The translations under genes and the position numbers were made by a program. Below, piece after piece: positions 14,845 to 64,000 of a stretch of 64,000 nt of DNA. This DNA comes from a bacterium (lineage in GTDB: Bacteria > Arandabacterota > Arandabacteria > Arandabacterales > JALGWA01). The stretch spans positions 1,389-65,388 of the forward strand of contig JASFEA010000001.1 of NCBI GenBank assembly GCA_050125095.1. The letters run 5' to 3'. The first letter of the stretch is position 1; every line of letters starts with the position of its first letter. Below the pieces are notes generated by a model. The model was not told the DNA's origin and ran no database searches. It worked only from the letters and a program-made list of their open reading frames with translations.

Positions 14845-14867
14845 AATGTCGGCGGGTCCTGAGGACG

Positions 14868-26085: not shown

Positions 26086-26094
26086 TGGTAGAAT
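26086..26094 (+). promoter_or_regulatory. Extended -10 promoter candidate TGgTAGAAT
   Basis: TG-N-TAGAAT lies about 70 nt upstream of the 26162 start. No good -35 is present, consistent with an extended -10 promoter. Confidence 0.35.
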
Positions 26095-26161
26095 AGAAGG
26101 TGGCAGCTTGTGTCTGCGTCCCGATACTGAGTGAATGATCGTGTTGTGAAAGGAGCACGAG

Positions 26162-42411: not shown

Positions 42412-42831
42412 ATGGGTGATACACGCGTCAGGTTGTCCAGAGACAGGGTAATGAGTGACTTCGTAAAGCGCGTAAACGAAATAAGCGGTCAGAACGTCCT
42501 CAACTGCTATCAATGCGGCAGGTGTTCTTCCGGATGTCCCCTGACCTTCGCAATGGACCTTCTCCCGAGCCAGGTGATCAGGCTCGTTCAGCTGGGTCTG
42601 GAAGAGGAAGCTCTCGAGGGAAACACGCAGTGGCTCTGCGCATCATGCCTGACCTGTCATGCAAGATGCCCCAGGGGCGTTGATCTGGCCAAGGTAATGG
42701 AGGCGCTGAGAGCTCTCAAGCTGAGGCCGGGTAAGGAAAGCCGCATAAAGATAGAGGATATTCCCAAAGAGCAGCTGGCGAAGATGCCTCAGCAGGGTAT
42801 TGTCAGTGGTTTCAGGAAACTCACCGGTTAA
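42412..42831 (+). CDS. hdrC: Heterodisulfide reductase subunit C-like (HdrC; two [4Fe-4S] ferredoxin motifs)
   Basis: CYQCGRCSSGCP and CASCLTCHARCP motifs with the HdrC-type spacing. SD AAGGAGA lies 9 nt upstream of ATG 42412. Confidence 0.8.
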   Translation: MGDTRVRLSRDRVMSDFVKRVNEISGQNVLNCYQCGRCSSGCPLTFAMDLLPSQVIRLVQLGLEEEALEGNTQWLCASCLTCHARCPRGVDLAKVMEALRALKLRPGKESRIKIEDIPKEQLAKMPQQGIVSGFRKLTG

Positions 42832-42855
42832 GAGTCAGTGTCCCAGGAGGATATC

Positions 42856-45758: not shown

Positions 45759-45773
45759 AAAGGTGAGGTAACG

Positions 45774-46556: not shown

Positions 46557-46575
46557 ATTAAGGAGGAGAGTTGAG

Positions 46576-48243
46576 ATGGCACTGCAGCCGGGAGCTGACC
46601 CTTATCCCAAGTCAATGCGTGAGACCATAAAGAAGGTCGAAGCGACCCGTTCTCGCCGGATGTCAGAGGAGTTCGACCGGATTACCGCCGACCAGAAGGC
46701 GGACCTCTTGGAGAAGTACCATCCCGACCATAAAAGGGGCGAAATGGTCGAGATAAAGGTTGGCATTAGCAAGGGCGAGAAGACTCCCAAGGAAGTCGAG
46801 AACATACTGCAGGCATATAGCCGCCTCGACCCCAAGAGCTTCGACCTCAGCCGGGTCGACTTCGATGTCGACGTGCTCGTCATAGGCGGCGGCGGCGCCG
46901 GAGCGTCCGCGGCCCTTATGGCGCATGAGCAGGGCGCCAAGGTTCTGCTCACCACCAAGCTCCGTCTGGGCGATGCCAACACCATGATGGCGCAGGGCGG
47001 TATCCAGGCCGCCGACAAGCCCAATGATCCGCCGTCGAGGCACTATCTGGACGTCATAGGCGGCGGCGGATACTACAATATCCCCGAGCTCGTGAAGGCG
47101 CTCGTACTTGACGCGCCCCGCGTCATAGACTGGCTCCAGGGGCTCGGCACCATGTTCGACAAGACGGCCGACGGTACTTACGTCACGATACACGGCGGCG
47201 GCACGTCGAGAAGAAGGATGCACGCCGCGCGCGACTACAGCGGCGCCGAGATAATGAGAACGCTGAGGGACGAGGTCCTGAACCGGGGAATAGAGGTCGT
47301 CGAGTTCACAGCGGCCATCGAACTCCTGAAGGACGATGAAGGCAAGTGCGCCGGCGCCGTGCTCTATAATATGGAAACAGAAGAGCATTTCGTCTGCCGC
47401 GCCAAGACCACGGTGATAGCCACGGGCGGCGCCGGAAGGCTCCATGTCCAGGGCTTCCCGACTACCAACCATTACGGGGCGACGGCCGACGGGCTCGTTC
47501 TCGCCTATCGCGCGGGCGCTCCGTTCATATTCATGGACGCAATTCAGTACCACCCCACCGGGGCCGCATTTCCGGAGCAGATCCTGGGGCTCCTGGTAAC
47601 CGAGAAAGTGCGCGGCATGGGCGCCCAGCTGGTCAACATCGAAGGGGATCAGTTCATTTATCCCCTGGAGACCAGGGACGTTGTTGCGTCGGGCATCATA
47701 CGCGAGTGCGGCGAGAGGAAGAAGGGCATAAGCACGAACACCGGCATGGTCGGCGTGTGGCTGGACTCGCCCATGATAGACCTGAAGCACGGCCCGGGCT
47801 CGGTGAAGCGCGCGCTTCCCGCCATGGTCCGGCAATACGAGCGCTGCGACATAGACATGACCAAGGACCCGATCCTCGTCTTCCCTACGCAGCACTACCA
47901 GAACGGCGGTGTCCTCATCAACGACAAGGCCGAGGCCGGGTTGGCGAACCTCTTCATCGGTGGCGAGGCGGCCGGCGGCATTCACGGCCGTAACAGGCTG
48001 ATGGGGAACTCGCTGCTGGACATACTCGTATTCGGCAGGCGCGCGGGACTCAACGCTGCGGCGCTTTCCAAGAAGACCAAGATAGGCAAACTCACCCTCA
48101 AGCATGTTGGGGAATATCATAAGGATCTCGAGGCGGCAGGCGTTCCGAAGGAGAAGGTCTCGCCGATGCTGCTGCCCGACTACCGCACGCCTGAGACCAA
48201 GGAGAGGCAGAAAGGCCAGGTGCCGCTGGGCGGGGCTGTCTAG
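46576..48243 (+). CDS. Fumarate reductase/succinate dehydrogenase flavoprotein-family FAD oxidoreductase (FrdA/SdhA/TfrA-like), non-covalent FAD type
   Basis: FAD motif DVLVIGGGGAGASAA, QYHPTG (cf. QFHPTG), and active-site GEAAGGIHGRNRLMGNSLLDILVFGRRAG (cf. HGANRLGGNSLLD). There is no His at the covalent-FAD position (GDANTMMAQGG). There is a 90-aa N-terminal extension. SD AAGGAGGAG. Confidence 0.75.
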   Translation: MALQPGADPYPKSMRETIKKVEATRSRRMSEEFDRITADQKADLLEKYHPDHKRGEMVEIKVGISKGEKTPKEVENILQAYSRLDPKSFDLSRVDFDVDVLVIGGGGAGASAALMAHEQGAKVLLTTKLRLGDANTMMAQGGIQAADKPNDPPSRHYLDVIGGGGYYNIPELVKALVLDAPRVIDWLQGLGTMFDKTADGTYVTIHGGGTSRRRMHAARDYSGAEIMRTLRDEVLNRGIEVVEFTAAIELLKDDEGKCAGAVLYNMETEEHFVCRAKTTVIATGGAGRLHVQGFPTTNHYGATADGLVLAYRAGAPFIFMDAIQYHPTGAAFPEQILGLLVTEKVRGMGAQLVNIEGDQFIYPLETRDVVASGIIRECGERKKGISTNTGMVGVWLDSPMIDLKHGPGSVKRALPAMVRQYERCDIDMTKDPILVFPTQHYQNGGVLINDKAEAGLANLFIGGEAAGGIHGRNRLMGNSLLDILVFGRRAGLNAAALSKKTKIGKLTLKHVGEYHKDLEAAGVPKEKVSPMLLPDYRTPETKERQKGQVPLGGAV

Positions 48244-51516: not shown

Positions 51517-51898
51517 GTGCGGATCCCGCCCGGTGAGCCCAAAAACCGCGAGCGGTTCCGGCTTCGGCTTGAATCTCAAGAACCCCTGGACATGAGCGTG
51601 GGGCGTTTGCCGCTCGACGGCGCGATTAGCAGTACGAGGGTTACGGCCGGGACCGGCAGCGCCGAGACCTGGCCGCGCGCCGCTTGCTATTTCAGTGAGG
51701 CGGCACAAAAAAAAGCTTGAAAGAGCGGCCCGACTATACTAAATTCTTTCGCTGTATGCCGTCTGCCGTTGGTGCCGCCAGGAAGTGGACGGCGTTCCGG
51801 CGGATTGTGTACGGGCCCCGCCGTTAATGCCCATGGAGACAAGAAGCGTCCAGGGGTGTGACCGCGGCGGCAGTAAGACAGGAACAGAGGAATGTGCT

Positions 51899-52165
51899 GT
51901 GTTGAGCTATGAGAAGATCAGCGAGATTCTCAAGGCAATAGCGCATCCTACACGTATGGAGATAATCGTCCGGCTCAGGGAGGACGGCTGCAATGTCTCG
52001 GAGATACAGAAAAATCTCGGGCTGCCGCAGTCGACAATATCCCAGCATCTCAGAATACTGAAGAACGCTGGTGTTCTCTCGAGCCGAAGGGAAGGGACGA
52101 AGGTCTGCTACAACGTGGAGATGAAAGAAATCATCAGCATGATAGAAGCACTTGGGAGAGACTGA
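51899..52165 (+). CDS. ArsR/SmtB-family transcriptional regulator (candidate thiol/persulfide-responsive repressor)
   Basis: wHTH: LKAIAHPTRMEIIVRL...CNVSEIQKNLGLPQSTISQHLRILKNAGVLSSRREG. Cys in alpha-3 (DGCNVSE, position equivalent to BigR/SqrR Cys) and a second Cys in the wing (KVCY). The GTG/TTG start at 51899/51902 was chosen. The track ORF from 51785 is far longer than ArsR proteins. Confidence 0.7.
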   Translation: MLSYEKISEILKAIAHPTRMEIIVRLREDGCNVSEIQKNLGLPQSTISQHLRILKNAGVLSSRREGTKVCYNVEMKEIISMIEALGRD

Positions 52166-52346: not shown

Positions 52347-52580
52347 ATGGACGTCAATGTTGACAAGACACTGGACTGCAAGGGCCTTTCCTGTCCCATG
52401 CCGATTCTGAAGCTCGCCAAAGAGATCAAGACGATGGAGAGCTCACAGGTCCTCGAGCTCCTTGGCACCGATCCCGGGTCCAAGGCCGATGTTCCCGGTT
52501 GGTGTGAGAAGACCGGAAACGAGTTCCTCGGTATGGAGGAAGAAGAGGGCGTCTACAAGTTCTATATCCGGAAGTCGTGA
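52347..52580 (+). CDS. tusA: TusA-family sulfur carrier protein
   Basis: 77 aa. LDCKGLSCPMPILKLAKEI contains the CPxP persulfide-carrying motif. Confidence 0.85.
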   Translation: MDVNVDKTLDCKGLSCPMPILKLAKEIKTMESSQVLELLGTDPGSKADVPGWCEKTGNEFLGMEEEEGVYKFYIRKS

Positions 52581-52639: not shown

Positions 52640-53854
52640 TTGATGGGAAACGATGAAAAGGGAGCCTGGCGCCAGCTGTGGAACACGTTCTTCGGCAAGA
52701 CATGGCCGATGTGGGCCGCAGGCATTTTGCTCGCTTTGCTCAACGTCTGTCTGTTCCTGGTTAAATCTCCATGGGGTGGAAGCGGGACGTACATTAACTG
52801 GGGGGAGAACATCTACAGCGGACTCAAGTTGTTTGGCCTCTCCGGCATCAAGCCGGTTCTCTCGCATACCTATGGCCTGCTGGGGTTGTTGACCCTGCTC
52901 GGGGCTTTTGCGGGGGCGCTGTTGGGGCGCGAGTTCGCGCTCAGGATCCCGCCGCCCGGAGAGATGTTTAAAGGGCTCCTGGGCGGCATCCTCATGGCGC
53001 TCGGTGCGACCCTGGGAATCGGCTGCACGATAGGCGGCTTCTTAAGCGGATGGGCAGCCCTCTCGGGCGGCGCCATCATCCTCGCGGTAGGATTCGTAAT
53101 AGGCACCTATATCGCCCTGCGTTATCTGCTCTGGGAGATGGAAAACCTCCCCAGGATGAGTACGGGCAAGAGCTACACCTGGCTGGCGGCTAAGGCAGGC
53201 GGCGGCGTCTGGCAACCCATACTGGGGGTTATGCTGACGGTCTTCCTTCTCGTCCTGTTCGGCCGGCGTTTCCAGAACGACAACGTACTGGCGATGTTCG
53301 CGATTATCGGCCTGGTGATCGGAATCATCCTCCAGCGTTCCCGTTTCTGCATTGTGAGGGCGTTCAGGGAGCCTTTCATGACGGGTGAATCCGAAGCCCC
53401 TCTGGGCGTCATGGTGGCGCTGGCTGTCGGGATATTCGGTTTTACCGTGATCAAATACATGGGCGTGGGCACTTCGACCCCGGGGGCGGCAAGGGTTCTC
53501 GCCATGACCTGGGTGTATCCCCACTTCTGGCTGAGGGCTCTGATCGGCGGAACCATCTTCGGCCTCGGGATGACAGTGGCCGGGGGATGCGCCATCGGCA
53601 CCATATGGAGGGCCGGCGAGGGACAGGTCAAGCTCTGGTTCTCGGCGCTCGGATTCATGCTGTTCGCCCCGATATCGAAGAAGTTCATCGTTCCGGGATT
53701 CGCCCACATTCTCCCTGAGTGGGCCCAGCAGAAAGTGTTCCTTCCTGATTGGTTCGGGTACTGGGGGGCGATGCTTTTATTCTTCGTCCTGATAGTGCTC
53801 TGGTACGTGTTCGTAAAGTGGAATGAGCGGACCGGCAGGTTTTCGGCTGTATAA
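52640..53854 (+). CDS. YeeE/YedE-family inner-membrane transporter (thiosulfate uptake, TsuA-like)
   Basis: Two YeeE/YedE repeats of about 9 TMs, with conserved Cys-containing loops LGIGCTIGGF and AGGCAIGTIWRAGEG. Directly downstream of tusA, the canonical tsuA-tsuB/yeeE-yeeD pairing. Confidence 0.8.
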   Translation: MMGNDEKGAWRQLWNTFFGKTWPMWAAGILLALLNVCLFLVKSPWGGSGTYINWGENIYSGLKLFGLSGIKPVLSHTYGLLGLLTLLGAFAGALLGREFALRIPPPGEMFKGLLGGILMALGATLGIGCTIGGFLSGWAALSGGAIILAVGFVIGTYIALRYLLWEMENLPRMSTGKSYTWLAAKAGGGVWQPILGVMLTVFLLVLFGRRFQNDNVLAMFAIIGLVIGIILQRSRFCIVRAFREPFMTGESEAPLGVMVALAVGIFGFTVIKYMGVGTSTPGAARVLAMTWVYPHFWLRALIGGTIFGLGMTVAGGCAIGTIWRAGEGQVKLWFSALGFMLFAPISKKFIVPGFAHILPEWAQQKVFLPDWFGYWGAMLLFFVLIVLWYVFVKWNERTGRFSAV

Positions 53855-53860
53855 GATGAG

Positions 53861-54382
53861 GTGAGAATGATGAGAATATTCGCACTCATATCGCTGCTTG
53901 CTCTTGTTGTGGCGCTTGCCGGCTGCGGGGGCGCGGGGACCGAAGGGAGAGGGCCCGCTGCATGCTCGGACGCCAAGGAAATGGTCGCCCATGCGAGGGC
54001 GGGAGTGGACGAGATACTGATCGACGAGTTCAATGCCCTGCTGGATAGCGATGAGTACTTCACCATTATCGACGTTCGCGAGCCGGACGAGTACGATGAA
54101 GGGTGCATCCCCGGCGCAATCAACATCCCGCGCGGCATATTGGAGTTCAAGATCGCCGACGAGAAGTACTGGGACAGCGAAGGCCTGTTCGTGCCCGAGA
54201 AGGACGAAGTCTTAATCGTCTACGGCCACAAGGTAGACCGCGGCGTGCTCGCGGCTGAGTCGCTGGTAAGGCTCGGTTACGGCAATGTCAGGCATCTCTA
54301 CGGGGGATGGGTCGTGTGGACCGAGGGTCCGGAGGCTGTGGAAGTAGAGGAAGTGGTTGAAGAGGGCGGTTGCGGAGGCTAG
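53861..54382 (+). CDS. Rhodanese-homology-domain lipoprotein lacking the catalytic Cys (predicted inactive)
   Basis: Lipobox LAGCGG. Single rhodanese fold (IDVREPDEYDEGCIPGAINIP...LIVYGHKVDRG...LYGGWVVW). The active-site loop has Gly where Cys is expected (DNA tac ggc cac). Ends with EEGGCGG. Confidence 0.7.
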   Translation: MRMMRIFALISLLALVVALAGCGGAGTEGRGPAACSDAKEMVAHARAGVDEILIDEFNALLDSDEYFTIIDVREPDEYDEGCIPGAINIPRGILEFKIADEKYWDSEGLFVPEKDEVLIVYGHKVDRGVLAAESLVRLGYGNVRHLYGGWVVWTEGPEAVEVEEVVEEGGCGG

Positions 54383-54586
54383 CCGGCCGACCCGCGGCAG
54401 CCGGGCAGACAGCAGAACGTGAAATAAAGCATGAATGGATGTAGTAGGTGTCGAGATAGAGCGTTGGCCTGCGGAATGGAATTAAAAAGGGGGTATCGTG
54501 GCCGGTTCCCAAGGGGACCGATTCCGCTCTGCAGCAGATTCAAGGATGGGTTAATCGGCAGTGGACCGCTTAATAGGAGGACAACA

Positions 54587-55555
54587 ATGAGAAGTGCGGC
54601 CAGATATTTCCTGGTCTCGATGGCCCTGGTGGCTGTGATCCTGGCCGGTTGTTCCGAGAACACGACCGCGCCCGGAGGTGACGCTTCAGCCACCCTGCGA
54701 GCCTATCTTGAAGACAATGATCTTGACCTTCCCGACATTCTAACCAGCTGGACAATACTGGCTTCCGAAGTGGAGACGAATCCCGCGGCATACTACATCA
54801 TGGACATCCGTCCTGACACGACGTATGCGAGGGGGCATATCGCCGGAGCCGTCAATTCCACGCTTGGCGATATCCTCGACGACGCGGCCAATAGCGGCGG
54901 CAAGCCCATAGTCGTCGCCTGTCTCACGGGCCAGTCCGCGGGGCATGCGATGTTGGCTCTGCGCTTGAGCGGATACCCCGACGCCAGGATCCTGAAGTGG
55001 GGTATGAGCTCGTGGAATGAGGACTTCGACAAGTGGACGGCCAACACCGCCAGTATCGCGGTGGGTCACTCAAACTGGTCTATGGACGCGACGCCGTCCC
55101 CGGGCACCTATGATTATCCGACGCTGATTACCACCGCCACCGACGGGCCGGGCATTCTGGCCGAGCGCGTGGAGGAAATGCTGTCCGGCGGCTTCAAGGG
55201 TGTAGAACCCGACGACGTTCTCGAATCGCCCGGAGACTACTATATCAACCTCTACTGGGAAGAGGATGACGTCACGACTTTCGGTCACATAGACGGCGCT
55301 TACAGGATACAGCCGCTCAGCCTGGCCGGCGACACGTTCAAGCACTACGACCCGGATGAGACCGTCGTCACGTACTGCTGGACGGGTCAGACCTCGTCAG
55401 TGATCACGGCGTACCTCAATATACTCGGGTACGACGCCAGGAGCCTCAAGTTCGGGGCCAATGCGCTCATATACAGCGAGCTGACCAAGCAGTACTGGGA
55501 AGGCTCAGAGGATTTCGAATACACGGTCTCATCACTGGCCTCGATGGCTGAGTGA
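54587..55555 (+). CDS. Tandem-rhodanese-domain lipoprotein (both domains with active-site Cys)
   Basis: AGGAGG lies 6 nt upstream of ATG 54587. Lipobox ILAGCSE. Domain 1 loop VVACLTGQSAG, domain 2 loop VTYCWTGQTSS. The track ORF extends to 54431. Confidence 0.75.
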   Translation: MRSAARYFLVSMALVAVILAGCSENTTAPGGDASATLRAYLEDNDLDLPDILTSWTILASEVETNPAAYYIMDIRPDTTYARGHIAGAVNSTLGDILDDAANSGGKPIVVACLTGQSAGHAMLALRLSGYPDARILKWGMSSWNEDFDKWTANTASIAVGHSNWSMDATPSPGTYDYPTLITTATDGPGILAERVEEMLSGGFKGVEPDDVLESPGDYYINLYWEEDDVTTFGHIDGAYRIQPLSLAGDTFKHYDPDETVVTYCWTGQTSSVITAYLNILGYDARSLKFGANALIYSELTKQYWEGSEDFEYTVSSLASMAE

Positions 55556-55670: not shown

Positions 55671-56714
55671 ATGAGGAAGCCGTGGATCTTGCTGCTGATT
55701 GCAGCGCTGGCTTTACCCGTGGCGGCATCGGGGCAGGGTTGCATGGGGGGTGGATCCGAGGAAGGCGTGAACGTCATAGGGTTCATTCAGCCTCAGTTTG
55801 AGTATCATCCGAATTACGATGACAGCGACCTGTCGGAGCTGACTTTCACATTCCTGAGAGCGAGGCTGGGCGTGACGGGCACTGTTCCCTATGACATCAG
55901 CTACTACTTCGTGATGGAGTTCGGTCCGTTTATGTCGGGCGAGCCGCCGTACATGCTTGACGCGTTCATAACTTATACGCGCCTGCCCTACGCGAATATC
56001 ACGTTGGGGCAATATAAGCAGCCTTTCAGCATGGAGAGGAATATCGCGTGCCATAAGCTGCATACGGTACGACGGGCGAATTTCGTAGAAGCGCTGGCAA
56101 TGGACAGGGACATAGGCCTCATGGCTTTCGGAGAAGTGGCGGAGGGACTCAACTACCACCTGGCATTGATGAACGGCACCGGGAAGAACACGGAAGACGA
56201 CAACAAGGGCAAGGATATTATCGGCCGCGTGACCTATGAGCCGATGGCGTACGTCACACTCGGGGCCGGATTCGTGTCGGGCAACTCCGCGACCGATGTG
56301 GAAGGCGCCGACGACAACACCAAGACGAGATACGGGGCCGATATCGAAGTGCGCTACAGGGACTTTCTTGCTCAGGGCGAGTACATATACGGCAAGGATG
56401 TGGGGGCCTATACGGAAGGCGGAGGCTGCGGCGGCGACCCGGTGGTCAAAGAGGGCTCCATCAAGAGAGACGGCTACTTCATCCTGCTGCTCTACAGGAC
56501 GGAGTATAACCTCGAGCCCGTGGTCAAGTACGAGAGATACAATGCGGACAAAGACGATGCCGAAGACGTGTGGCACGCCTGGACCTTTGGATTCAACTAC
56601 TTCATGAACGACTGGACCAGGATTCAGGCCAATTACATTCGCAGAATAGAGGATTTCGTGCCCGCGCTGAACAACGATGAATTCGTGGTCCAGTTGCAGG
56701 TGGTAATGCAGTAA
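55671..56714 (+). CDS. Anion-selective porin of the OprO/OprP (Porin_O_P) family
   Basis: Signal peptide. LRARLGVTG, LALMNGTGKN and C-terminal ...TRIQANYIRR... match the phosphate/polyphosphate porin family. 16-strand-sized barrel. Confidence 0.65.
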   Translation: MRKPWILLLIAALALPVAASGQGCMGGGSEEGVNVIGFIQPQFEYHPNYDDSDLSELTFTFLRARLGVTGTVPYDISYYFVMEFGPFMSGEPPYMLDAFITYTRLPYANITLGQYKQPFSMERNIACHKLHTVRRANFVEALAMDRDIGLMAFGEVAEGLNYHLALMNGTGKNTEDDNKGKDIIGRVTYEPMAYVTLGAGFVSGNSATDVEGADDNTKTRYGADIEVRYRDFLAQGEYIYGKDVGAYTEGGGCGGDPVVKEGSIKRDGYFILLLYRTEYNLEPVVKYERYNADKDDAEDVWHAWTFGFNYFMNDWTRIQANYIRRIEDFVPALNNDEFVVQLQVVMQ

Positions 56715-56761: not shown

Positions 56762-57628
56762 GTGAAGAAGTTGAGCCGTTACGCGGCGATACTCGTCATG
56801 TCGCTTTTGGTTTCGCAGGCGGCACTTGCCCAGCTCGTGACAGTCGACGAGCTCGCAGAGATGATGGAAAAGGGCGAAGTGGTCGTTGTGTCGGCGAGAT
56901 CGCCCAAGGACTATGAGAAAGTGCATATACCGGGCGCCGTGAATCTCTGGCACAAGGACCTGTATAAAGAGGGCGATATCCAGGCGCTTCTTAAGAGCCC
57001 CGAGGAGATAGCGGAAATACTCGGAAGCCTGGGGATAAGCGCGGATAAGACCATCGTCGTCTATGACAGCGGCAAGGCCAAATTCGCCGGGCGGATTTAC
57101 TGGATTCTCAAATACATGGGCGCACAGGACGTCAATATACTCGACGGCCATATGAAGATGTGGCGGAAGGGGCGCAAGCCGGTCACCAAGGATGTAACGG
57201 AAATTACCGCGGCCGAGTTCGTCCCCGCCCCGGTGAATTCGATTTACGCGTCGATAGATTACGTGAAGTCTCATCTCGGCAAGCCGGATTTCGTGTTGCT
57301 CGACGCCAGAGCCGAGGATGAATACGACGGCAAGAAGGGCGAGACCAAGAGGAAGGGGCATATACCCGGGTCTGTGCGCCTGGATTATGTGGAAGTCCTG
57401 AATGAGGACGGCACCATGAAGTCGAAGGCCGACCTCACCAAGGTCTTCGCCGACGCCGGGATCACACCCGACAAGGATGTTGTCATATATTGCGAGACAA
57501 GCGTGCGCGCGGGAATCGTGTTCCTGGCCCTGGACTCTATACTCGGTTATCCCAAAGTCAGGGTGTACGACGGCGCGCTGTATGAATGGTCCGCCGATGC
57601 CGGCAATGAGGTCGAAGCAAAGAAATAG
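56762..57628 (+). CDS. Periplasmic two-domain rhodanese (thiosulfate sulfurtransferase-like)
   Basis: GTG start. Signal peptide ILVMSLLVSQAALAQ. Inactive N-domain (VVYDSGKAKFAG) plus catalytic C-domain with a 6-residue loop IYCETSVRAG, as in TST/SseA-type enzymes. Confidence 0.8.
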   Translation: MKKLSRYAAILVMSLLVSQAALAQLVTVDELAEMMEKGEVVVVSARSPKDYEKVHIPGAVNLWHKDLYKEGDIQALLKSPEEIAEILGSLGISADKTIVVYDSGKAKFAGRIYWILKYMGAQDVNILDGHMKMWRKGRKPVTKDVTEITAAEFVPAPVNSIYASIDYVKSHLGKPDFVLLDARAEDEYDGKKGETKRKGHIPGSVRLDYVEVLNEDGTMKSKADLTKVFADAGITPDKDVVIYCETSVRAGIVFLALDSILGYPKVRVYDGALYEWSADAGNEVEAKK

Positions 57629-57654: not shown

Positions 57655-58014
57655 ATGGGCAAAACGGCAATCACCATCAATGGTGCGGGCGTGCAGAACG
57701 TATTTCCGGCTGTCACCATAGCCGTCTCGGCGGCTGCAAGCGGTGACGAGGTCATTCTCTTCTTCACCCCCGGCGGGGCTCCCGCGATGGTAAAGGGAGC
57801 GCTGGAGAAGCTGAATGAGGAAGCCAAGAATCTGCCGGATCTGATGGAGATGATAGAGGGTCTTAAGATGCTCAATGCCAGATTCCTGGTATGCGAGCTG
57901 GCCTTCGGGGTACACGGATTCGGTGAAGAGGATCTAAGGGAAGGCGCTGAAGTTGTCGGCGCGACCACGTTCGTGGGCGCGGCCGATGGCGCAGGCCTGA
58001 CGCTTTCTTTCTGA
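57655..58014 (+). CDS. DsrE/DsrF-like sulfur-relay protein
   Basis: 119 aa, DsrE fold pattern. TINGAG...VILFFT...ARFLVCELAF with the conserved Cys in the CxxAF context. Confidence 0.7.
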   Translation: MGKTAITINGAGVQNVFPAVTIAVSAAASGDEVILFFTPGGAPAMVKGALEKLNEEAKNLPDLMEMIEGLKMLNARFLVCELAFGVHGFGEEDLREGAEVVGATTFVGAADGAGLTLSF

Positions 58015-58044
58015 AGTGGTCTCTAGTTGTAGGAGGAACGCAGA

Positions 58045-58269
58045 ATGGCGACAGAACAACTCGATTGTCTGGGACTGAAGTGCCCGCAGCCTATACTGAA
58101 AGTCGTGGCGAAGATACCGTCCATGCAGGCGGGCGACATCCTTGAAGTTCTGGCGGACTGCCCGTCCTTCCCGACGGACATGAAGGCCTGGTGCGAGAAG
58201 ACGGGCAAGGTCCTGCTCATGCTCACGACCGACGGGGCAGGCAAGCATACGGCGCAGATCCAGCTATAA
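58045..58269 (+). CDS. TusA-family sulfur carrier protein (second copy)
   Basis: 74 aa. LDCLGLKCPQPILKVVAKI CPxP motif. 30 nt downstream of the DsrE-like gene, the dsrE-tusA pairing known from sulfur-oxidiser hdr loci. Confidence 0.8.
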   Translation: MATEQLDCLGLKCPQPILKVVAKIPSMQAGDILEVLADCPSFPTDMKAWCEKTGKVLLMLTTDGAGKHTAQIQL

Positions 58270-58391
58270 GTTCATTCTGCCGGTTGGCACCGGGGGACAG
58301 GAAGGCGGCGGGATGCGGCTGTGAGAGCATCGACGGGCGCTGTGTCGTCGCCATTTCAGGATCCCGCTGCCCTTGAGAGAGAATTGTTGAT

Positions 58392-58832
58392 ATGAGCGAA
58401 GGTCAGCAAAAAGCGGAGTTCACCCCGAAGATAGTGGGTTTTCTCTGCAACTGGTGCACTTACGCGGCCGCCGATCTCGCCGGTTCGACCAAACTCGAGA
58501 TATCGCCGTCCCTCACCGTGATCCGGGTGATGTGCTCCAGCCGGGTAGACCATAACCTGGTTCTCACGACCTTTTTCCGGGGGGCGGACGGCATTCTGAT
58601 AGCGGGCTGTCATCCCGGTGACTGCCATTACGGCAAGGGCAATTATTACGCTAGACGCAGGTACGCGGTGCTCAAGAGGGTGATGGAGGGGCTGGGGCTG
58701 GAGCCGGAGAGACTCCAATTGTCGTGGGTATCGGCCTCTGAAGGCAATCGCTATGCCGATGTAGTGAACGCATTTTCGGAGAAGATAAAGGCGCTGGGGC
58801 CGAATCCCATAAGCGGCAGGGCGGACTTCTGA
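58392..58832 (+). CDS. MvhD-like (methyl-viologen-reducing hydrogenase delta subunit family) Fe-S protein
   Basis: FLCNWCTYAAADLAG...VMCSSRV...GADGILIAGCHPGDCHY is the MvhD/FlxD signature. Confidence 0.8.
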   Translation: MSEGQQKAEFTPKIVGFLCNWCTYAAADLAGSTKLEISPSLTVIRVMCSSRVDHNLVLTTFFRGADGILIAGCHPGDCHYGKGNYYARRRYAVLKRVMEGLGLEPERLQLSWVSASEGNRYADVVNAFSEKIKALGPNPISGRADF

Positions 58833-58847
58833 CGGAGGATACGCGAG

Positions 58848-60176
58848 ATGCACCATGAGAATGTAGTTGTGGTGGGAGCCGGACTCGCCGGGATGAAGGC
58901 GAGCCTCCTGCTTGCCCAGGCGGGCAAGAAGGTCCATCTCGTTGAGACTCTTCCCCTGATAGGCGGCAAGACCATCAAGAATGAGGAGAGCTTCCCGAAC
59001 CTGGAATGCTCGACATGCCTCGTGGCGCCCATACAGCAGGCCGTGCTTCAGAATCCGGACATAGAAGTCATGACGATGAGCGCTGTGGAGAAGGTAGAGG
59101 GAGACGAGGGCGACTACACCGTGACAGTCAAGAAGTCCGCGAGGTACGTGAAGGTGGCGGACTGTATCGGTTGTGGGATGTGTTATGAGCCGTGCCCCGT
59201 TTCCGTGTCCAACGAATGGGAAGAAAACCTTGGTGAGAGAAAGGCGATTTACGTGCCGTGCCCGGGTTCGCTGCCCAATGTGCCGACCGTGGATCCGGAA
59301 CACTGCCTGAAACTGAGCGGCAAGGGGGAATGCACCGCCTGTGTGGAGGCCTGCATGTTCGGAGCCGTCAATCTGGAGGACAGGGACGAGACAGTCAAAA
59401 TAGAGGCCGGCGCCATGATCGTGTCCACCGGCGCTGGCGTCTTCGACGTTTCGAAGCTCCCCGACCTCGGCTACGGCGAGTATCCCGGGGTCTACACGCC
59501 CTTCGAGTTCGAGAGGCTTTTCGCCTCAAACGGCCCCACGCTCGGGGAACTCAAGTTGCGGGGCACGGAGAACGCGCCCGGGAAGATAGCGATCATCCAC
59601 TGCGTGGGCCGGAAAGAGTGCGGGTACTGCTCGGGCGTATGCTGTATGTATTCTTTCAAGTTCGCGCACTTCCTCAAGAAGAAACTGCCGGAGGCGTCGG
59701 TTTACAATCTGCACTCGGATATCTGCGTGCCCGACAAGACCTATCAGAAGTTCTTCGATGGCGTCAACGGCAAGCATTCGGAGATGATTTACAACTCGTC
59801 GATGGAGAGTCTCAAGGTAACGGGTTCGGGCGACGGCCTGCAGGTCACCTATCTCGACGAGGCCGGCGCGGAGAAGAACCTCGAGGTCGATATGGTCATA
59901 TTGGCCGCCGCCATGGTCCCGGAAGAAGGGACACGGAATCTGGCCGAAGTGCTCGGGATAGACCTGGACGCCGCGGGCTTCTTCAAAGTGCGTGACGACG
60001 ACATAGCCTCGGTGGAGACCTCCAGGAAGGGGATATTCGTTGCCGGCACGGCTGAGGGCCCCAAGGACAGCCAGTCTTCCGTAATACAGGCCGATGCGGC
60101 CGTGGGCAAGGTCCTGGCCTTTCTGGAGTCCTTGAAGCCGCAGCCGGAAGAGGCGGCGGCGGGGGGACAGGGTTGA
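58848..60176 (+). CDS. HdrA/QmoA-like FAD oxidoreductase with one ferredoxin insert (no N-terminal 4-Cys domain)
   Basis: FAD-binding VVVVGAGLAGMKASLLLAQAGKKVHLVE...IGG. Ferredoxin motifs CIGCGMCYEPCP and CTACVEACMFGAV. HdrA-type motif HCVGRKECGYCSGVCCMYSFK. Confidence 0.75.
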   Translation: MHHENVVVVGAGLAGMKASLLLAQAGKKVHLVETLPLIGGKTIKNEESFPNLECSTCLVAPIQQAVLQNPDIEVMTMSAVEKVEGDEGDYTVTVKKSARYVKVADCIGCGMCYEPCPVSVSNEWEENLGERKAIYVPCPGSLPNVPTVDPEHCLKLSGKGECTACVEACMFGAVNLEDRDETVKIEAGAMIVSTGAGVFDVSKLPDLGYGEYPGVYTPFEFERLFASNGPTLGELKLRGTENAPGKIAIIHCVGRKECGYCSGVCCMYSFKFAHFLKKKLPEASVYNLHSDICVPDKTYQKFFDGVNGKHSEMIYNSSMESLKVTGSGDGLQVTYLDEAGAEKNLEVDMVILAAAMVPEEGTRNLAEVLGIDLDAAGFFKVRDDDIASVETSRKGIFVAGTAEGPKDSQSSVIQADAAVGKVLAFLESLKPQPEEAAAGGQG

Positions 60177-60190
60177 TGCAGGAAGCGTCT

Positions 60191-61873
60191 ATGAAAGCGA
60201 AAATCGGAGTATATGTCTGCGAATGCGGGCCCAATATCGGCCAGAGCATTGACATACCGAGGGTTCTCGAGTCGATTCCAGCCCTGGAAGGCTATGAGGA
60301 CGTAGAACTTGTCCCGAAGAGTTACGGCCTGCTCTGCTCTCCGGACGGCAAGGAACACCTGAAGAAGGAAATCCAGGAGAACGGATACACGCATCTTGTC
60401 ATAGCGGCCTGTTCGCCAAGGGACCACGATTCGACCTTCATGGGCATATGCAAGCAGGCCGGACTCAATCCCTATCTCTATAAGATCATAAACATACGCG
60501 AGCACTGCGGCTGGATAATACATGACAAAGACGCGGCAACCGAAAAGGCGATCCAGTACATAAGCGGGGGCATCAGCAGGGTCCTATATCAGTCGGAGCT
60601 CTTCGAGAGGCAGCTTGAGATTACCCCCGACGTGCTCGTCATAGGCGGCGGCGTGGCGGGCATAGAAACGGCGCTCTCGCTCGCCGGCGAGGACAGGAAA
60701 GTCTATCTGGTGGAGAGGGCGGAAGAACTGGGGGGAAGCGCGGCCCGGTTCGCCTCGCTTCTTCCCCGCCAGCAAGGCGGAGCGGACCTGATAAGAAGCA
60801 AAATCGAGGCGGTCGGAGAGAACGAGCATATCCGGGTCCTCCTCAATACCGAGGTCGAGAGCTCGATAGGGTTCCTGGGCAATTTTGAGGTTGTGCTTGC
60901 AGGCAAAAGTGACGGCGAGAAGACAGATATCAAGGTCGGGGCGATAGTGGTGGCCACGGGCTGCCGCATGTCGGACCCGAGGAGCTTCGCGGGCATAGAA
61001 TACGCCGACTCGGATGAGGTCTATACGTCGCCTGAGGTTGAGAAGATGAATACCGGCGGGGCGATTACCCTCCGCTCGGGCGAGAAGCCTGCATCGGTGG
61101 CGCTTGTCCACTGCGTGGGCCGGGGCGAGAAGGGCTACTGCTCACGGGTCTGCTGCAACTACATGATGAAGATCGCCGGCTATTTCAAGAAACAGTCGAA
61201 GGAAACCAAAGTAACTGAGTTCTTCGTTGATATGTGCGTTCCCCACAAGGCCGACCAGAAATTCTTCGACGAATCGGCGCGCCTTGGTATCGATTTCAAG
61301 CGTGTCCGTAAGATCGGACTTTCCGGCACCAGAGTCGAATTCAAGGGGATGGACGGCAAAAAGCAGCAAATGGACTTCGATATGGTTGTCCTGGCTTCGG
61401 CGTTGGAGCCCTCCGAGGGCACGGAGGCGCTGGCAGGGCTTCTGGAGATAGACCTCGATGATAGGGGATTCTACCGGGAGGCGCATCATACCACCGATCC
61501 GGTGGCCACTTCCATCGACGGCATTTTCGTGGCCGGTGCCTCACAGGGCCCCAGGGACATATCCGATTCGATATTGCTGGCCCAGGCCTCGGCGGGGCGA
61601 ATCCGCGCCCAGCTGATACCGGGAGGCAAGATAGTGCCCGAAGTCAAGGTGTCCGAGATCCTCGAAGCCTATTGCACGGGATGCAAGACCTGTCTCGAAG
61701 TGTGCGGTTATGGCGCAATCTACTTCGACGATCAGAAGGGAATATCGGTGGTGAACGAGGCGGTTTGCAGGGGTTGCGGCAATTGCTTCGGCAGTTGCCC
61801 GTCCGGGGCCCTCCGGACGAAGCACTTCACGAACAGCCAGCTCCTGCGGGAGGTAACCGAGGCGCTGAAATAG
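60191..61873 (+). CDS. HdrA-like FAD/Fe-S oxidoreductase (second copy, with N-terminal Cys cluster and C-terminal ferredoxin)
   Basis: KIGVYVCECGPNI...LLCSPDG...IAACSPRD...REHCGW (HdrA N-domain), FAD motif VLVIGGGVAGIETAL, HCVGRGEKGYCSRVCCNYMMK, C-terminal CTGCKTCLEVCG/CRGCGNCFGSCP. The ATG at 60191 is preceded by AGGAAG. The track ORF is from 60173. Confidence 0.8.
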   Translation: MKAKIGVYVCECGPNIGQSIDIPRVLESIPALEGYEDVELVPKSYGLLCSPDGKEHLKKEIQENGYTHLVIAACSPRDHDSTFMGICKQAGLNPYLYKIINIREHCGWIIHDKDAATEKAIQYISGGISRVLYQSELFERQLEITPDVLVIGGGVAGIETALSLAGEDRKVYLVERAEELGGSAARFASLLPRQQGGADLIRSKIEAVGENEHIRVLLNTEVESSIGFLGNFEVVLAGKSDGEKTDIKVGAIVVATGCRMSDPRSFAGIEYADSDEVYTSPEVEKMNTGGAITLRSGEKPASVALVHCVGRGEKGYCSRVCCNYMMKIAGYFKKQSKETKVTEFFVDMCVPHKADQKFFDESARLGIDFKRVRKIGLSGTRVEFKGMDGKKQQMDFDMVVLASALEPSEGTEALAGLLEIDLDDRGFYREAHHTTDPVATSIDGIFVAGASQGPRDISDSILLAQASAGRIRAQLIPGGKIVPEVKVSEILEAYCTGCKTCLEVCGYGAIYFDDQKGISVVNEAVCRGCGNCFGSCPSGALRTKHFTNSQLLREVTEALK

Positions 61874-61950
61874 GTCTGCCCGGGACGCCGCCCGTAAGGG
61901 GAGGGCCGGGCATGGAGATTGAGAGTGGTTAGAGCATTTGGAGAGGCGAT

Positions 61951-63117
61951 TTGATAAGCGATCCTGAAAAGCAAGGTGCCGCCATGAAGGCCGCCGGGGG
62001 GATAGAGGACGCAGTGCGGGGCTTCCTGCGCGAGGCGCTCAAGAGCTCCGCGGCCGATGCCGTGCTCGTGCCTGTGAGGACCCCGGCTGAGGATTCTTAC
62101 GCCTGGATACTGACCAATAATCCCTCGGTTCTGGACAATGCCAGGCCCGCGGCCCCCACGATGCCCGTTCAGGGCGCCAAGGCCCTTAAGAGCCTTACCA
62201 GGAAGGGAGAGGGCAAGGCCAGGATCATAGCCGTCATGAGACCCTGCGAGATCAGAGCGGCCATCGAGCTGTACAAGCTCAACCAGGTGCATCTGGACAA
62301 TATCACCCTCATAAGCTATGACTGTGTCGGAGCTGTCCCTCTTCAGGATTACATAAGTGACCCTGCGGGCAGTGAAAAGCGCTTCGATTCGATGCTCAAG
62401 GCAGGGAAGACGGATGACTCCGCGGTCAAACCCGTATGCAGGATATGCGTCGACTTCTCTCTGGTGGATTCGGACATACATATCGGGCTCATCGGGCAGT
62501 CGGGCGGTTCGGCCCTGCTGGTTCCCAACAGCGAGAAGGGGCAGGCCCTGCTCGAATCCATGGGAATGGCCTGCGGGGAGGACATCTCCGGATGGACCAA
62601 GACCGTAGCCCAGATGAAGGTGGAGAGAGAGGGCGCCAGAGCCAGGGCGCTCGCGGAAATGGGGACGAGGCTTCAGGGCTTCGACGGGCTCAGCGCGACT
62701 TTCGCGGATTGTATCGGTTGCCATAATTGCCAGAGCGTGTGCCCCATCTGTTACTGCAGGCAGTGCTACTTCGACTCCGATGCGTCAAGGCAGGACGCGG
62801 CCTCTATTCTGGATACCGCGATCGAACGCGGCGGCGTAGCTTTCCCGGGCAACAGGGTAATGTTCCATACAGGGAGAATGGCGCATATGAGCCTCTCCTG
62901 CGTTTCATGCGGGCAGTGCTCTGACGCTTGCCCGGTCTCTATTCCGGTAGCCGACATCTTCAGTTATATGGCCGGCCTCACACAGCCGACCTTCGAATAC
63001 ACGGCGGGCAGGAACGACGGCGAGCCGCTTCCTCTCAGGCATTTCAAGGAAAAAGAAGTCGAAAAAGTCCACGAAATCGTCAAGGGCGCCGAGGAAGAGG
63101 AGGTAGCTCATGAGTAG
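61951..63117 (+). CDS. FrhB/FdhB-family (coenzyme F420 hydrogenase/dehydrogenase beta-subunit-like) Fe-S flavoprotein
   Basis: FrhB N-domain followed by the C-domain Cys pattern CIGCHNCQSVCPICYC and CVSCGQCSDACP. Confidence 0.7.
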   Translation: MISDPEKQGAAMKAAGGIEDAVRGFLREALKSSAADAVLVPVRTPAEDSYAWILTNNPSVLDNARPAAPTMPVQGAKALKSLTRKGEGKARIIAVMRPCEIRAAIELYKLNQVHLDNITLISYDCVGAVPLQDYISDPAGSEKRFDSMLKAGKTDDSAVKPVCRICVDFSLVDSDIHIGLIGQSGGSALLVPNSEKGQALLESMGMACGEDISGWTKTVAQMKVEREGARARALAEMGTRLQGFDGLSATFADCIGCHNCQSVCPICYCRQCYFDSDASRQDAASILDTAIERGGVAFPGNRVMFHTGRMAHMSLSCVSCGQCSDACPVSIPVADIFSYMAGLTQPTFEYTAGRNDGEPLPLRHFKEKEVEKVHEIVKGAEEEEVAHE

Positions 63118-64000
63118 AGTCAGGATCGACATGAGCTCCTCGGAGGGTGCTGTCGCCTTCCTGAAGCACCTGCTTGGGTCCGGCAAGGTGAGCGCCATTC
63201 TCACGATGCGGAAGAATCCGGGCACGGGGGCCTATGACATAGGTCTTATCGCCGATGAGGCCGGCCTCGATAATGCGGCGCCGGTCGCCCCGGTGATGGT
63301 GGCCAATACCGGACGGGTTCTCTCCTCGCTGACGCCCGCGGCGAAGCCCCTGGCAGTGATGCTGAAGCCCTGCGAACTCCGCGCGTTTGTGGAGCGCGTT
63401 AAGCGGGACCAGGGTTCATTCGAGAACCTGCTGATCATATCCTATACATGCGGAGGGGTTTTCCCTCTGGATGAGGCCATCGGGGAGCACTTCCAGGATT
63501 CGATTCCCGATTATTTCAGACGCGTCGCCTCGGGCGAGATCGTAGAAGGCGTTCGGGAGACCTGCAAGGCATGCGAGCACTTTGTGCCCACCTGCGCCGA
63601 CGTGACCATCTCCATAGCGGGCGACCGGGATTCGACCTCGGGCTGCTCCATTTACCTCAATACCGACAGGGCCAGGGAAATGGCGGAAGGCCTCGAAGGA
63701 AAGCAGTCGGACGACGAATTCGATCCAGCCGTGACTGCGGAACTGGCCGTGAAGCGGACGGCGGAGAAGAAAAAGGTCTTTGATTCCCTCGCTCCGGCCG
63801 GTGACGGCCTGGACGGTCTTATAGAGATTTTCGGGAAGTGCGTGGGATGCCACGGTTGCGGGCACGTCTGCCCCATCTGTTACTGCGTCCTGTGTGATTT
63901 TGAATCGCATAGCTTCGATTACAATCTGCCCTACTTCGAAAAGGAGCTCTCCGAGAAGGGTTCCCTGAGGCTGCCGCCCGACACGATTTTCTTCCACCTG
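63110..64000 (+). CDS. Second FrhB/FdhB-family Fe-S flavoprotein, 3'-truncated by the window end
   Basis: The ATG at 63110 overlaps the upstream stop (ATGAGTAG). The in-frame ORF stays open to position 64000. Contains CKACEHFVPTCADV and CVGCHGCGHVCPICYC. Absent from the ORF track because no stop falls in the window. Confidence 0.7.
   Translation, partial: MSRVRIDMSSSEGAVAFLKHLLGSGKVSAILTMRKNPGTGAYDIGLIADEAGLDNAAPVAPVMVANTGRVLSSLTPAAKPLAVMLKPCELRAFVERVKRDQGSFENLLIISYTCGGVFPLDEAIGEHFQDSIPDYFRRVASGEIVEGVRETCKACEHFVPTCADVTISIAGDRDSTSGCSIYLNTDRAREMAEGLEGKQSDDEFDPAVTAELAVKRTAEKKKVFDSLAPAGDGLDGLIEIFGKCVGCHGCGHVCPICYCVLCDFESHSFDYNLPYFEKELSEKGSLRLPPDTIFFHL

Follow-up and report, generated by a model that had tools for sequence, protein, structure and literature searches.

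Here we describe, at the end of a 64,000-nucleotide stretch of bacterial DNA (contig JASFEA010000001.1 of assembly GCA_050125095.1, Arandabacterota; hereafter the window), an Hdr-type gene cluster that is headed by a pair of sulfur carriers and contains neither HdrB nor, in this lineage, a hydrogenase. Its core consists of seven co-directional and tightly packed genes (57655-64000, + strand) encoding a DsrE-like protein, TusA, an MvhD, two HdrA paralogs termed HdrAs and HdrAl, and two paralogous FdhB/ElpB-type iron-sulfur proteins termed X and Y. Every part comes from a known protein family; it is the combination that appears to be new. On the basis of sequence and synteny, for every member of the operon, we propose that the cluster encodes a soluble, possibly bifurcating complex that would reduce sulfane sulfur bound to TusA/DsrE with NAD(P)H, or with H2 in some lineages, a tentative reading to which we assign a probability of roughly 0.45. 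The initial annotation of this DNA, made from the sequence alone, had likewise proposed that a pair of sulfur carriers stands at the head of a non-canonical Hdr-type assembly, and in this our analysis agrees with it.

Organization and conservation of the operon

The seven reading frames are genes and not chance open reading frames (ORFs), because their order is repeated across 80 related loci. Family profile matches bear out the gene content, order, tight packing and + strand orientation originally described: the DsrE-like protein (57655-58014, 119 aa; PF13686, 38 bits; PF02635, 30 bits) is followed by TusA (58045-58269, 74 aa; PF01206, 66 bits), MvhD1 (58392-58832, 146 aa), HdrAs (58848-60176, 442 aa; HdrA2 model positions 140-561), HdrAl (60191-61873, 560-565 aa, with an alternative start at 60176), X (61951-63117, 388 aa; partial FrhB_FdhB_C match, 33 bits) and Y, which begins at 63110 and is cut by the window end at 64000 (partial FrhB_FdhB_C match, 31 bits; 364 aa on the continuing contig). 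MvhD1, a predicted [2Fe-2S] connector, matches PF02662 (FlpD) over 123/123 positions with 171 bits in a separate gene, and is free-standing rather than fused, as had been noted. X and Y overlap by 8 nt (ATGAGTAG), with the Y ATG at 63110 and the X stop at 63115-63117, rather than by the single nucleotide first reported. The 14-nt gap reported between the two HdrA genes holds only with the HdrAl ATG at 60191, and not with the start at 60176 used in the JGI gene call for an identical contig. Intergenic gaps are short, Shine-Dalgarno-like sequences precede most genes, and no terminator-like site was seen on the + strand between 57.6 and 64 kb; this absence is the only use made of the promoter and terminator scan, whose sites were no commoner than in shuffled sequence.

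Continuing contigs, together with the missing + strand terminator, the short gaps and the ribosome-binding sites, argue for a longer operon, predicted to run from ~51.8 kb to roughly 17 kb past the window end and to span roughly 30 kb and ~25 genes. The seven genes, first described as a module, would thus be genes 8-14 of this operon and not a self-contained unit. The gene order after Y was read beyond the window from a 201.8-kb contig (L083), which matches window positions 61587-64000 at 99.5% identity and extends them by 18.7 kb; a JGI contig carrying an identical HdrAs also shows the order downstream. Y is followed by a second MvhD (MvhD2), a 1020-aa fusion of an HdrAs-like half (residues 5-428) with an HdrAl-like half (450-1003), a third MvhD (MvhD3), a third and shorter FdhB-like protein of 321 aa, a Fer4_22 protein related to HydB/ShyB/AsrA, and an NAD_binding_1/[2Fe-2S] (DHODB_Fe-S) protein related to HydG/ShyC/AsrB. 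Thereafter come a lone HdrC-like protein (156 aa), a canonical FrhB (378 aa) with both Pfam halves and intact FAD loops, a 300-aa fusion of an HdrA Rossmann/ferredoxin fragment with NuoE, a NuoF homolog, and a 1090-aa fusion that joins a NuoG-type [2Fe-2S] N-terminus to the rest of the HdrAs-like part and a complete HdrAl-like part; this interleaved NuoE/NuoF/NuoG-HdrA set occupies 11148-17229 of L083. Two distal ORFs of the operon, at 17340-17954 (204 aa) and 18228-18761 (177 aa) of the same contig, have no Pfam or NCBIfam match.

The operon therefore holds three paralogous HdrA units: the split HdrAs and HdrAl, the 1020-aa fusion, and a third unit with pieces of NuoE and NuoG set between its parts. 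MvhDs (three in all) and X, Y and their 321-aa relative flank the first two, and the third lies beside the canonical FrhB and the HdrC-like protein. A scan of operon genes in the window, L083 and a further locus (L004) yielded no CCG-domain HdrB (PF02754), and neither a hydrogenase nor FdhA was found in the L083 continuation. The initial annotation had held that its proposal would fall if ordinary hdrBC or hydrogenase genes lay downstream; neither was found, while the Flx-like NAD(P)H genes come part of the way towards such an arrangement. We reject a standard Mvh/Hdr or Flx-Hdr operon, as there is no hdrB, this lineage has no hydrogenase, and the Flx-like genes occur without HdrBC. Likewise rejected was the assignment of the 1020-aa protein to HdrL with a GltD/NfnB insert, the protein being a plain HdrAs-HdrAl fusion.

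A scan of one genome per species identified 112 relatives of X, from which 80 loci were kept. These carry more than 12 phylum labels, including Krumholzibacteriota, Latescibacterota, Cloacimonadota, Neomarinimicrobiota, Delongbacteria, WOR-3, Zixibacteria, Ignavibacteria, Acidobacteriota/Aminicenantales, Anaerolineae, Clostridia and Verrucomicrobiota as well as one archaeon; the closest relative of X is from Eisenbacteria (78%). The recurring core is TusA-MvhD-HdrAs-HdrAl-X-Y-MvhD. X precedes Y in 80/80 loci; of the 68 loci in which the gene after Y can be seen, 61 have an MvhD there; and the split HdrAs-HdrAl-X order is found in 53. The earlier suggestion that the Hdr module is tied to TusA or DsrE gains support from this synteny: of the 40 loci with visible upstream sequence, 33 have TusA immediately upstream of MvhD1 and 28 have DsrE-TusA there, and most of the five TusA loci without an adjacent DsrE have a DsrE heading the YeeE block described below. 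The block of YeeE, rhodanese and porin genes is itself linked to the core in at least three different arrangements.

Several variants of the core were also found. In place of DsrE/TusA, some Cloacimonadota have hdrCBA-mvhD ahead of the module and FeS/TfrA-like genes behind it, and at least one genome (L023 and L039) has both the DsrE/TusA-flanked and the hdrCBA-flanked versions. In Anaerolineae, Acidobacteriota, Ignavibacteria and Zixibacteria a fused HdrAA (~980 aa) stands ahead of MvhD-X-Y-MvhD. In locus L073 the core DsrE-TusA-MvhD-HdrAs-HdrAl-X-Y-MvhD is followed by a TauE/SafE-family exporter (12824-13693) and mvhDGA [NiFe] hydrogenase genes (13537-16610), and a [NiFe] hydrogenase also occurs in L060. 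A true NfnB-type HdrL was found only in L073, ahead of its core; further downstream, this locus encodes a 545-aa HdrA-MvhD fusion of QmoB-like architecture. Separately, a 562-aa ORF lies right after the second MvhD in L013 (12848-14536), L018, L030 and L062, and the L013 copy, the sole one scanned, is a malic enzyme.

Complementary HdrA halves and probable iron-sulfur arms

The two HdrA paralogs divide between them the domains of a single canonical HdrA. HdrAs aligns to residues 142-557 of the solved HdrA (E 5e-78), covering the thioredoxin-reductase-type FAD domain and the inserted 2x[4Fe-4S] ferredoxin domain, and lacks the N-terminal domain as well as the C-terminal ferredoxin domain. It has the Cys197-type CSTC motif (C54-S-T-C57) in all 50 orthologs, nine Cys in the ferredoxin domain (one conserved at 98%, the others invariant) and the invariant C252, C261, C265 and C266. 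HdrAl aligns to residues 8-243 and 321-653 (E 2e-100), skipping residues 244-320, and thus combines the N-terminal Cys, FAD and C-terminal ferredoxin domains without the inserted ferredoxin domain; it has six (nearly) invariant Cys in the N-terminal region and eight in the C-terminal, and the Cys197-type CSxC motif is absent in all 56 orthologs. The initial annotation had described one QmoA-like HdrA and one of full HdrA architecture. The former description stands insofar as HdrAs has no N-terminal Cys domain, and the latter does not, given the domain skipped in the HdrAl alignment and the missing CSxC motif.

Residues expected around the bifurcating FAD, a check that the initial annotation had proposed, are kept in both paralogs. 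The GxGxxG FAD motif and the cluster motif HCVGR...YCS..CC are invariant in each, and the equivalent of Lys409, which in HdrA (5ODC) bonds N5 of the bifurcating FAD (PMC6405883), is K271 in HdrAs (90% K, 10% R) and K333 in HdrAl (96% K). Both proteins therefore combine the features that define HdrA, namely GxGxxG, the C-x(n)-C-x3-CC [4Fe-4S] motif and the flavin-N5 lysine. Neither unites all four HdrA domains in one homodimer-forming polypeptide, and the full set is found only in the pair. We infer that HdrAs and HdrAl would form a heterodimer that mimics (HdrA)2.

X and Y, which share 34% identity, belong by fold and core [4Fe-4S] ligands to the FrhB/FdhB/ElpB family. A profile of X matches the Hdr-associated FdhB 9t1s_M over its full length (E 4e-42) and ElpB with E 2e-33, and the best fold matches of its AlphaFold model (pLDDT 77, pTM 0.81) are FdhB 7bkb_E and ElpB 8rvu_E, then FrhB, Fsr and HCAR, with probability 1.0. 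Each protein has 15 invariant Cys. The core-cluster ligands C99, C125, C163 and C166 are invariant in 81 sequences, within the motifs PC..., G..C.G and C..C.D, and a 2x[4Fe-4S] region is evident from a Pfam match in X and from Cys motifs read directly in Y. The initial annotation had named glutamate-synthase-type subunits as the outcome that would undo its assignment, and this identity was rejected: X and Y are homologs from the Hdr-associated FdhB/ElpB branch and lie beside MvhD/HdrA genes in 80/80 loci.

The initial annotation was thus right on the family, and its further description of X and Y as flavoproteins is doubtful. Pfam FrhB_FdhB_N was not detected in either protein. The FAD loops of FrhB comprise QDGG 24-27, at the pyrophosphate, and G73-T77, at the adenine and flavin (PMC3930138). 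In X the GG of QDGG is replaced by R/Q/E plus K/E/S and in Y by a variable residue plus G (46%), while the AG(T/S) loop has become (D/N)-A-x-P in both; FrhB encoded downstream (378 aa), FdhB 9t1s_M and ElpB 8rvu_E all retain these loops. Common to X and Y is a new conserved motif, P..P.MP.(Q/N)(G/A). Because the FAD-loop motifs are lost, X and Y are most likely iron-sulfur electron wires or docking arms and not hydride-accepting flavoproteins, and the uptake of hydride from F420H2 or NAD(P)H that had been suggested for them is unlikely. In the archaeal FdhB- and ElpB-containing complexes, the subunit of this type binds FAD as well as four [4Fe-4S] clusters and feeds HdrA by way of HdrA's N-terminal domain and a [2Fe-2S] protein of the MvhD type (PMC12350162). 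Here, sequence similarities suggest that the HydB/HydG(AsrA/AsrB)-like pair encoded downstream and the NuoE/NuoF-like proteins are the likelier points of entry for NAD(P)H.

The JGI name for X and Y, formate dehydrogenase beta subunit, was rejected, as FdhA or ElpA was not found nearby: no molybdopterin FdhA (or truncated ElpA) was found in the window, L083 or L004, a search in which not every large neighbouring ORF was scanned. Those recurrent, previously unassigned neighbours of X and Y that were tested proved to be a malic enzyme, a TonB receptor, an amine-oxidase-like flavoprotein, a secreted beta-propeller protein, a [NiFe] hydrogenase, an FAD oxidase and one ORF without a match.

A candidate route for sulfane-sulfur reduction and its alternatives

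The genes upstream of the core, all on the + strand, extend the association with sulfur to the cell envelope. An ArsR/SmtB-family regulator (51785..52165; NCBIfam HTH_metalloreg, 87 bits) is weakly BigR-like (55 bits, below cut-off); its true start is probably internal, with orthologs of 86-96 aa, and its orthologs stand ahead of TusA-YeeE or DsrE in ~10 related loci. A canonical TusA in the TsuB/YeeD position (52347..52580; NCBIfam TusA, 66 bits; CPxP and DPG motifs) is paired with a YeeE/YedE-family inner-membrane transporter for sulfur (or selenium) (52640..53854; Pfam Sulf_transp, 159 bits), which matches the NCBIfam models for YedE/FdhT (120 bits) and TsuA (95 bits), both below cut-off. 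Two rhodanese lipoproteins follow. The first (53861..54382; Pfam Rhodanese, 66 bits; LAGC lipobox) has G-H at the expected position of the catalytic Cys (loop VYGHKVDRG) and may be a non-catalytic sulfur-binding or docking protein; its C-terminal GGCGG tail contains a Cys. The second (54431..55555; Pfam Rhodanese, 78 bits) has two domains with loops CLTGQS and CWTGQT, and probably starts at the ATG at 54587, which yields a signal peptide with an LAGC lipobox; its orthologs are 316-331 aa long. The block closes with an outer-membrane anion porin of the OprO/OprP family with a signal peptide (55671..56714; Pfam Porin_O_P, 53 bits) and a periplasmic two-domain sulfurtransferase of the thiosulfate/mercaptopyruvate type (56762..57628; Pfam Rhodanese, 134 bits; NCBIfam 3-MST, 129 bits, and ExtH, 75 bits, below cut-offs), with a signal peptide ending ...AQAALA-Q and the active loop CETSVR. 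All three rhodaneses and the porin carry export signals, as read from their translations. Upstream block and core are together read, from these family assignments, as a predicted route from uptake through carriers to redox proteins.

The carriers themselves show strong conservation at their predicted reactive positions. The single Cys80 of the DsrE-like protein is invariant in 33 orthologs and aligns with the Cys of the DsrE-like structures PDB 2qs7 and 3pnx. In the TusA of the core, Cys13 (the CPxP active site) and Cys39 are invariant in 38 orthologs; Cys39 replaces the DPG motif, E. coli YedF has a Cys at the same position ('DCP'), and an intramolecular di- or trisulfide could form there, as in DsrC. 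In MvhD1, the position of Cys73 is an in-frame TGA in the orthologs of Cloacimonadota and Delongbacteria, within G-(C/U)-HPGDCHY, and the MvhDs of these two phyla are probably selenocysteine proteins, like VhuD and BamF; the MvhD proteins of the window lineage have Cys instead. Three MvhD paralogs, each with a TGA, were seen in loci L016 (e.g. 6395-6595, with continuation), L029, L036, L047, L053 and L055.

In the reading we favour, sulfane sulfur derived from thiosulfate, polysulfide or S0 would be taken up via the porin, the rhodaneses and YeeE and loaded as a persulfide on TusA/DsrE; on the two-Cys TusA a di- or trisulfide may result. Electrons would come from NAD(P)H, through the HydBG/AsrAB-like and NuoEF-like modules, or in some lineages from H2 through Mvh. 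MvhD and the iron-sulfur arms of FdhB type would carry them to the FAD in the asymmetric HdrA heterodimer, and this FAD may bifurcate part of them to ferredoxin, with the inserted ferredoxin domain of HdrAs as the route. The sulfane sulfur on TusA/DsrE would serve as the oxidant and be reduced to H2S, providing an electron sink, possibly with energy coupling, for fermentative anaerobes in sulfidic habitats. The reductive direction is favoured because the variable partners of the core look like donors (Mvh, the NAD(P)H modules, the neighbouring malic enzyme), because the flanks that replace DsrE/TusA are terminal reductases (HdrCB, TfrA-like fumarate reductase), because the hosts look like fermenters and the window has no sulfite- or APS-oxidising enzymes, and because the oxidation of sulfane sulfur alone could not reduce NAD+ or ferredoxin. 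For the NAD(P)H pair, the closest similarity is to sulfhydrogenase beta/gamma and to the AsrA/AsrB families.

Several considerations weigh against this proposal. No candidate for the S-S-reducing site is apparent in the predicted operon, where HdrB and the other recognised sites are absent. NADH-driven bifurcation to ferredoxin with sulfane sulfur as the acceptor (~-270 mV) is unfavourable under standard conditions, and bifurcation onto sulfur becomes marginally feasible with H2 or NADPH as the donor. The core also occurs without TusA/DsrE and is hence not intrinsically sulfur-specific, and TauE-family proteins export several different anions. Lastly, the combination of ArsR, YeeE, TusA, DsrE and Hdr-like genes is also that of the sulfur-oxidising sHdr systems (PMC11094781, PMC11582611), and Williams et al. 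proposed oxidation for the genes of Ca. Stygibacter and Tenebribacter (PMC8542988). This resemblance and this proposal also speak for an oxidation or disproportionation analogous to sHdr, in which sulfane sulfur would be converted to sulfite and electrons passed via HdrA to NAD(P)+ or ferredoxin, e.g. for CO2 fixation by the reverse TCA cycle; the TauE/SafE-type exporter of L073 could then export the product sulfite. We consider this unlikely, since the defining parts of sHdr (HdrB1/B2 and the gene order) are missing, the HdrA proteins are not of the short sHdr type, and the Mvh hydrogenase and NAD(P)H-oxidising modules beside the core fit an input of electrons better; on general thermodynamic grounds, moreover, the electrons released from sulfane to sulfite are too positive for NAD+ or ferredoxin without an extra driving reaction.

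Slightly less likely still is a general balancer of NAD(P)H, ferredoxin and H2 in the manner of Flx-Hdr or Nfn, for which the two-Cys TusA and DsrE would be a DsrC-like thiol/disulfide partner instead of a sulfur donor, or the sulfur genes co-regulated neighbours. Such a role would accommodate the second invariant Cys of TusA, the several NAD(P)H modules within one operon, and the occurrence of the core with other flanks (HdrCBA with TfrA-like genes, malic enzyme, a D-lactate-dehydrogenase-like FAD oxidase, or fused HdrAA without TusA). However, without a flux of sulfur (or selenium) it is difficult to account for three exported rhodaneses, a porin and YeeE, the linkage of the uptake genes to the core recurs in different orders, and the invariant Cys of DsrE points to sulfur transfer. 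Selenium handling, with YedE/YedF-type uptake and carriage coupled to the reduction of selenite or selenium for selenoproteins or detoxification, would agree with the best NCBIfam match of the transporter (YedE/FdhT, 'selenium metabolism membrane protein', 120 bits, below cut-off), the 'DCP' Cys shared with E. coli YedF, the weak match of the periplasmic rhodanese to ExtH of a selenite/tellurite reduction operon, and the probable selenoprotein status of the three MvhDs in Cloacimonadota and Delongbacteria. We nevertheless regard it as very improbable: the family matches are all far below cut-offs, the window lineage keeps the whole uptake set with Cys-containing MvhDs, a ~25-gene operon with three HdrA units is out of scale for a trace element, and related metagenome-assembled genomes apparently come from anoxic, sulfidic sites (PMC8542988). 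As to the reductive proposal itself, a more specific version would make the core an HdrB-independent cytoplasmic reductase of sulfane sulfur (thiosulfate/polysulfide), with the TusA/DsrE persulfide reduced at X/Y, whose flavin pocket would have been remodelled into the P..P.MP.(Q/N)(G/A) site beside an iron-sulfur cluster, and the HdrA heterodimer bifurcating to ferredoxin; at this level of detail we hold it to be doubtful, and a little more so than either the oxidative or the redox-balancing account.

Beyond the operon, the window contains a further Hdr cluster (42412..48243, + strand) encoding HdrC, HdrB, a complete HdrA (657 aa), an FeS protein and a TfrA-like flavoprotein. It holds the sole CCG-domain HdrB of the window (42838-43785), 14 kb upstream and in this separate cluster, and is possibly a partner acting in trans. 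In some Cloacimonadota an MvhD-HdrAs-HdrAl-X-Y module is inserted within a homologous hdrCBA/TfrA-like cluster, between hdrCBA-mvhD and the FeS/TfrA-like genes. Between the TfrA-like cluster and the sulfur operon of the window (48359-50446) lie a gene for a full-length EF-G (695 aa) and a xylose-isomerase-like TIM-barrel gene. At 24198-29707, a sulfatase gene (611 aa, - strand) stands beside a gene for a 1181-aa gingipain-type C25 peptidase, which fits a polymer-degrading heterotroph. In general, the rest of the window is of a heterotrophic type, with the sulfatase, the C25 peptidase and acetate-kinase-family genes, and a scan of it found no dsr, apr, sat, sox, psr or hydrogenase genes.

Among the carriers of this widespread, uncharacterised and directly testable operon are Cloacimonadota, Marinimicrobia, Krumholzibacteriota, Eisenbacteria, Latescibacterota, Delongbacteria and WOR-3. 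These lineages are abundant in anoxic, sulfidic waters, in sediments and in digesters but are uncultured, and annotations usually call their Hdr genes 'heterodisulfide reductase', for which no substrate is known. The conserved coupling of a complete chain for sulfur import and carriage to HdrA, MvhD and FdhB-type proteins offers a testable candidate for that substrate, protein-bound sulfane sulfur, and suggests a hidden contribution of fermenters to sulfide production. If the HdrB-independent reductase were real, it would represent a new energy-conserving sulfur reduction in Cloacimonadota, Marinimicrobia, Krumholzibacteriota, Eisenbacteria, Latescibacterota and other uncultured phyla. Furthermore, the operon provides a natural experiment on HdrA bifurcation, in which the homodimer has been broken into complementary halves and the FdhB-type arm is apparently devoid of flavin.

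Relation to known Hdr assemblies

A literature search for this combination of genes retrieved only a passing mention of clustered sulfur and Hdr genes in Ca. Stygibacter (PMC8542988), and papers beyond the searched literature may exist. The initial statement that no described complex has this subunit set was nonetheless too strong, in view of this mention, of the Elp-Hdr and Fdh-Hdr complexes and of the HdrA pairs of anaerobic methanotrophic (ANME) archaea. FdhB-type, MvhD-type and HdrA proteins cooperate in Elp-Hdr (ElpABC-HdrABC of Methanothermobacter marburgensis, PDB 8rvu) and in Fdh-Hdr (FdhAB-MvhD-HdrABC of Methanospirillum hungatei, PDB 7bkb) (PMC12350162). The operon shares with them a multi-[4Fe-4S] FdhB-type protein, an MvhD-type connector and HdrA, with X, HdrAs and HdrAl as homologs. 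It differs in having no HdrB, a lone HdrC-like protein far downstream and no FdhA/ElpA found near X/Y, in its two FdhB paralogs without FAD loops and in an HdrA split in two; it is bacterial, it includes a module for sulfur carriage and import, and a role for F420 is unsupported.

A parallel for the split HdrA comes from the ANME archaea, in which HdrA occurs in tandem or fused forms where the N-terminal domain and Cys197 are complementary, and which have been read as obligate asymmetric heterodimers (Chadwick et al. 2022, PMC9012536). These archaeal clusters also have FdhB/FrhB-type and MvhD neighbours, some with FdhB lacking FdhA, and fused HdrA of >1000 aa; a fused HdrA is likewise present in the Moorella MetFV-HdrABC-MvhD complex (PMC9012536). 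The same complementary pairing is seen here, with one partner bearing Cys197 and lacking the N-terminal domain, and fused versions exist. However, the fused proteins described here have the opposite order to those of ANME and Moorella, with the Cys197-bearing half first, and unlike in ANME the division between the halves extends to the inserted ferredoxin domain, the host is a bacterium, and there is a linkage to DsrE, TusA, YeeE and rhodaneses that is unreported for the archaeal clusters.

Among bacterial systems, Qmo comprises two HdrA paralogs (one of them short), an MvhD-type module and an HdrC-type module, has no HdrB and serves a sulfur-metabolising partner. Compared by description, the operon resembles QmoABC in its two HdrA paralogs, its lack of HdrB and its apparent service to sulfur metabolism. 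Membership was rejected on the same description: MvhD is a separate gene and not fused to the second HdrA paralog, there is no membrane haem-b QmoC (the qmoC model matched only at 2-98 of 360, in soluble proteins of 139 and 156 aa), and no aprAB or sat was found among the genes scanned in the window and its extension. FlxABCD-HdrABC joins an NAD(P)H-binding flavoprotein (FlxA), iron-sulfur proteins (FlxB/C) and an MvhD (FlxD) to HdrABC. The downstream half recalls the Flx-Hdr of Desulfovibrio, the sulfhydrogenases and AsrAB: MvhD3 (in the position of FlxD), the 321-aa FdhB-like protein, and the Fer4_22 and NAD_binding_1/DHODB_Fe-S proteins fit the Flx half, as compared by description. In contrast to these systems, scores lie below the equivalog cut-offs, HdrBC, hydrogenase alpha/delta and siroheme AsrC are absent, and the partner is a fused HdrA-HdrA.

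The carriers and the importer invite comparison with two further systems. The clusters of sHdr combine DsrE-family and TusA carriers with rhodaneses, a YeeE-type importer (SoxT) and an ArsR-type regulator (PMC11094781, PMC11582611), and the same DsrE/TusA/rhodanese/YeeE/ArsR set is present here. The operon has, however, no HdrB1/B2, no HdrC1/C2 and no hdrC1B1A-hyp-hdrC2B2 order, and no lipoate-binding protein was found within it, LbpA not having been specifically searched for outside; the HdrA proteins are instead long, methanogen-type paralogs with MvhD and FdhB-type partners, and HdrAs is distant from sHdrA (6tjr; E 3e-25, against 5e-78 for the methanogen HdrA). The YTD cluster consists of yedE-related, tusA and dsrE-related genes with 2-3 specific conserved hypothetical genes (PMC12998232). 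YedE-family, TusA and DsrE-like genes are found here with rhodaneses and a porin intervening, the YTD hypothetical families being compared by description only.

Taken together, these comparisons indicate that the operon departs in at least one defining feature from each of Elp-Hdr, Fdh-Hdr, Qmo, Flx-Hdr and sHdr. By analogy, the assembly would work most like Elp-Hdr and Fdh-Hdr together with the predicted HdrA heterodimer clusters of the ANME archaea.

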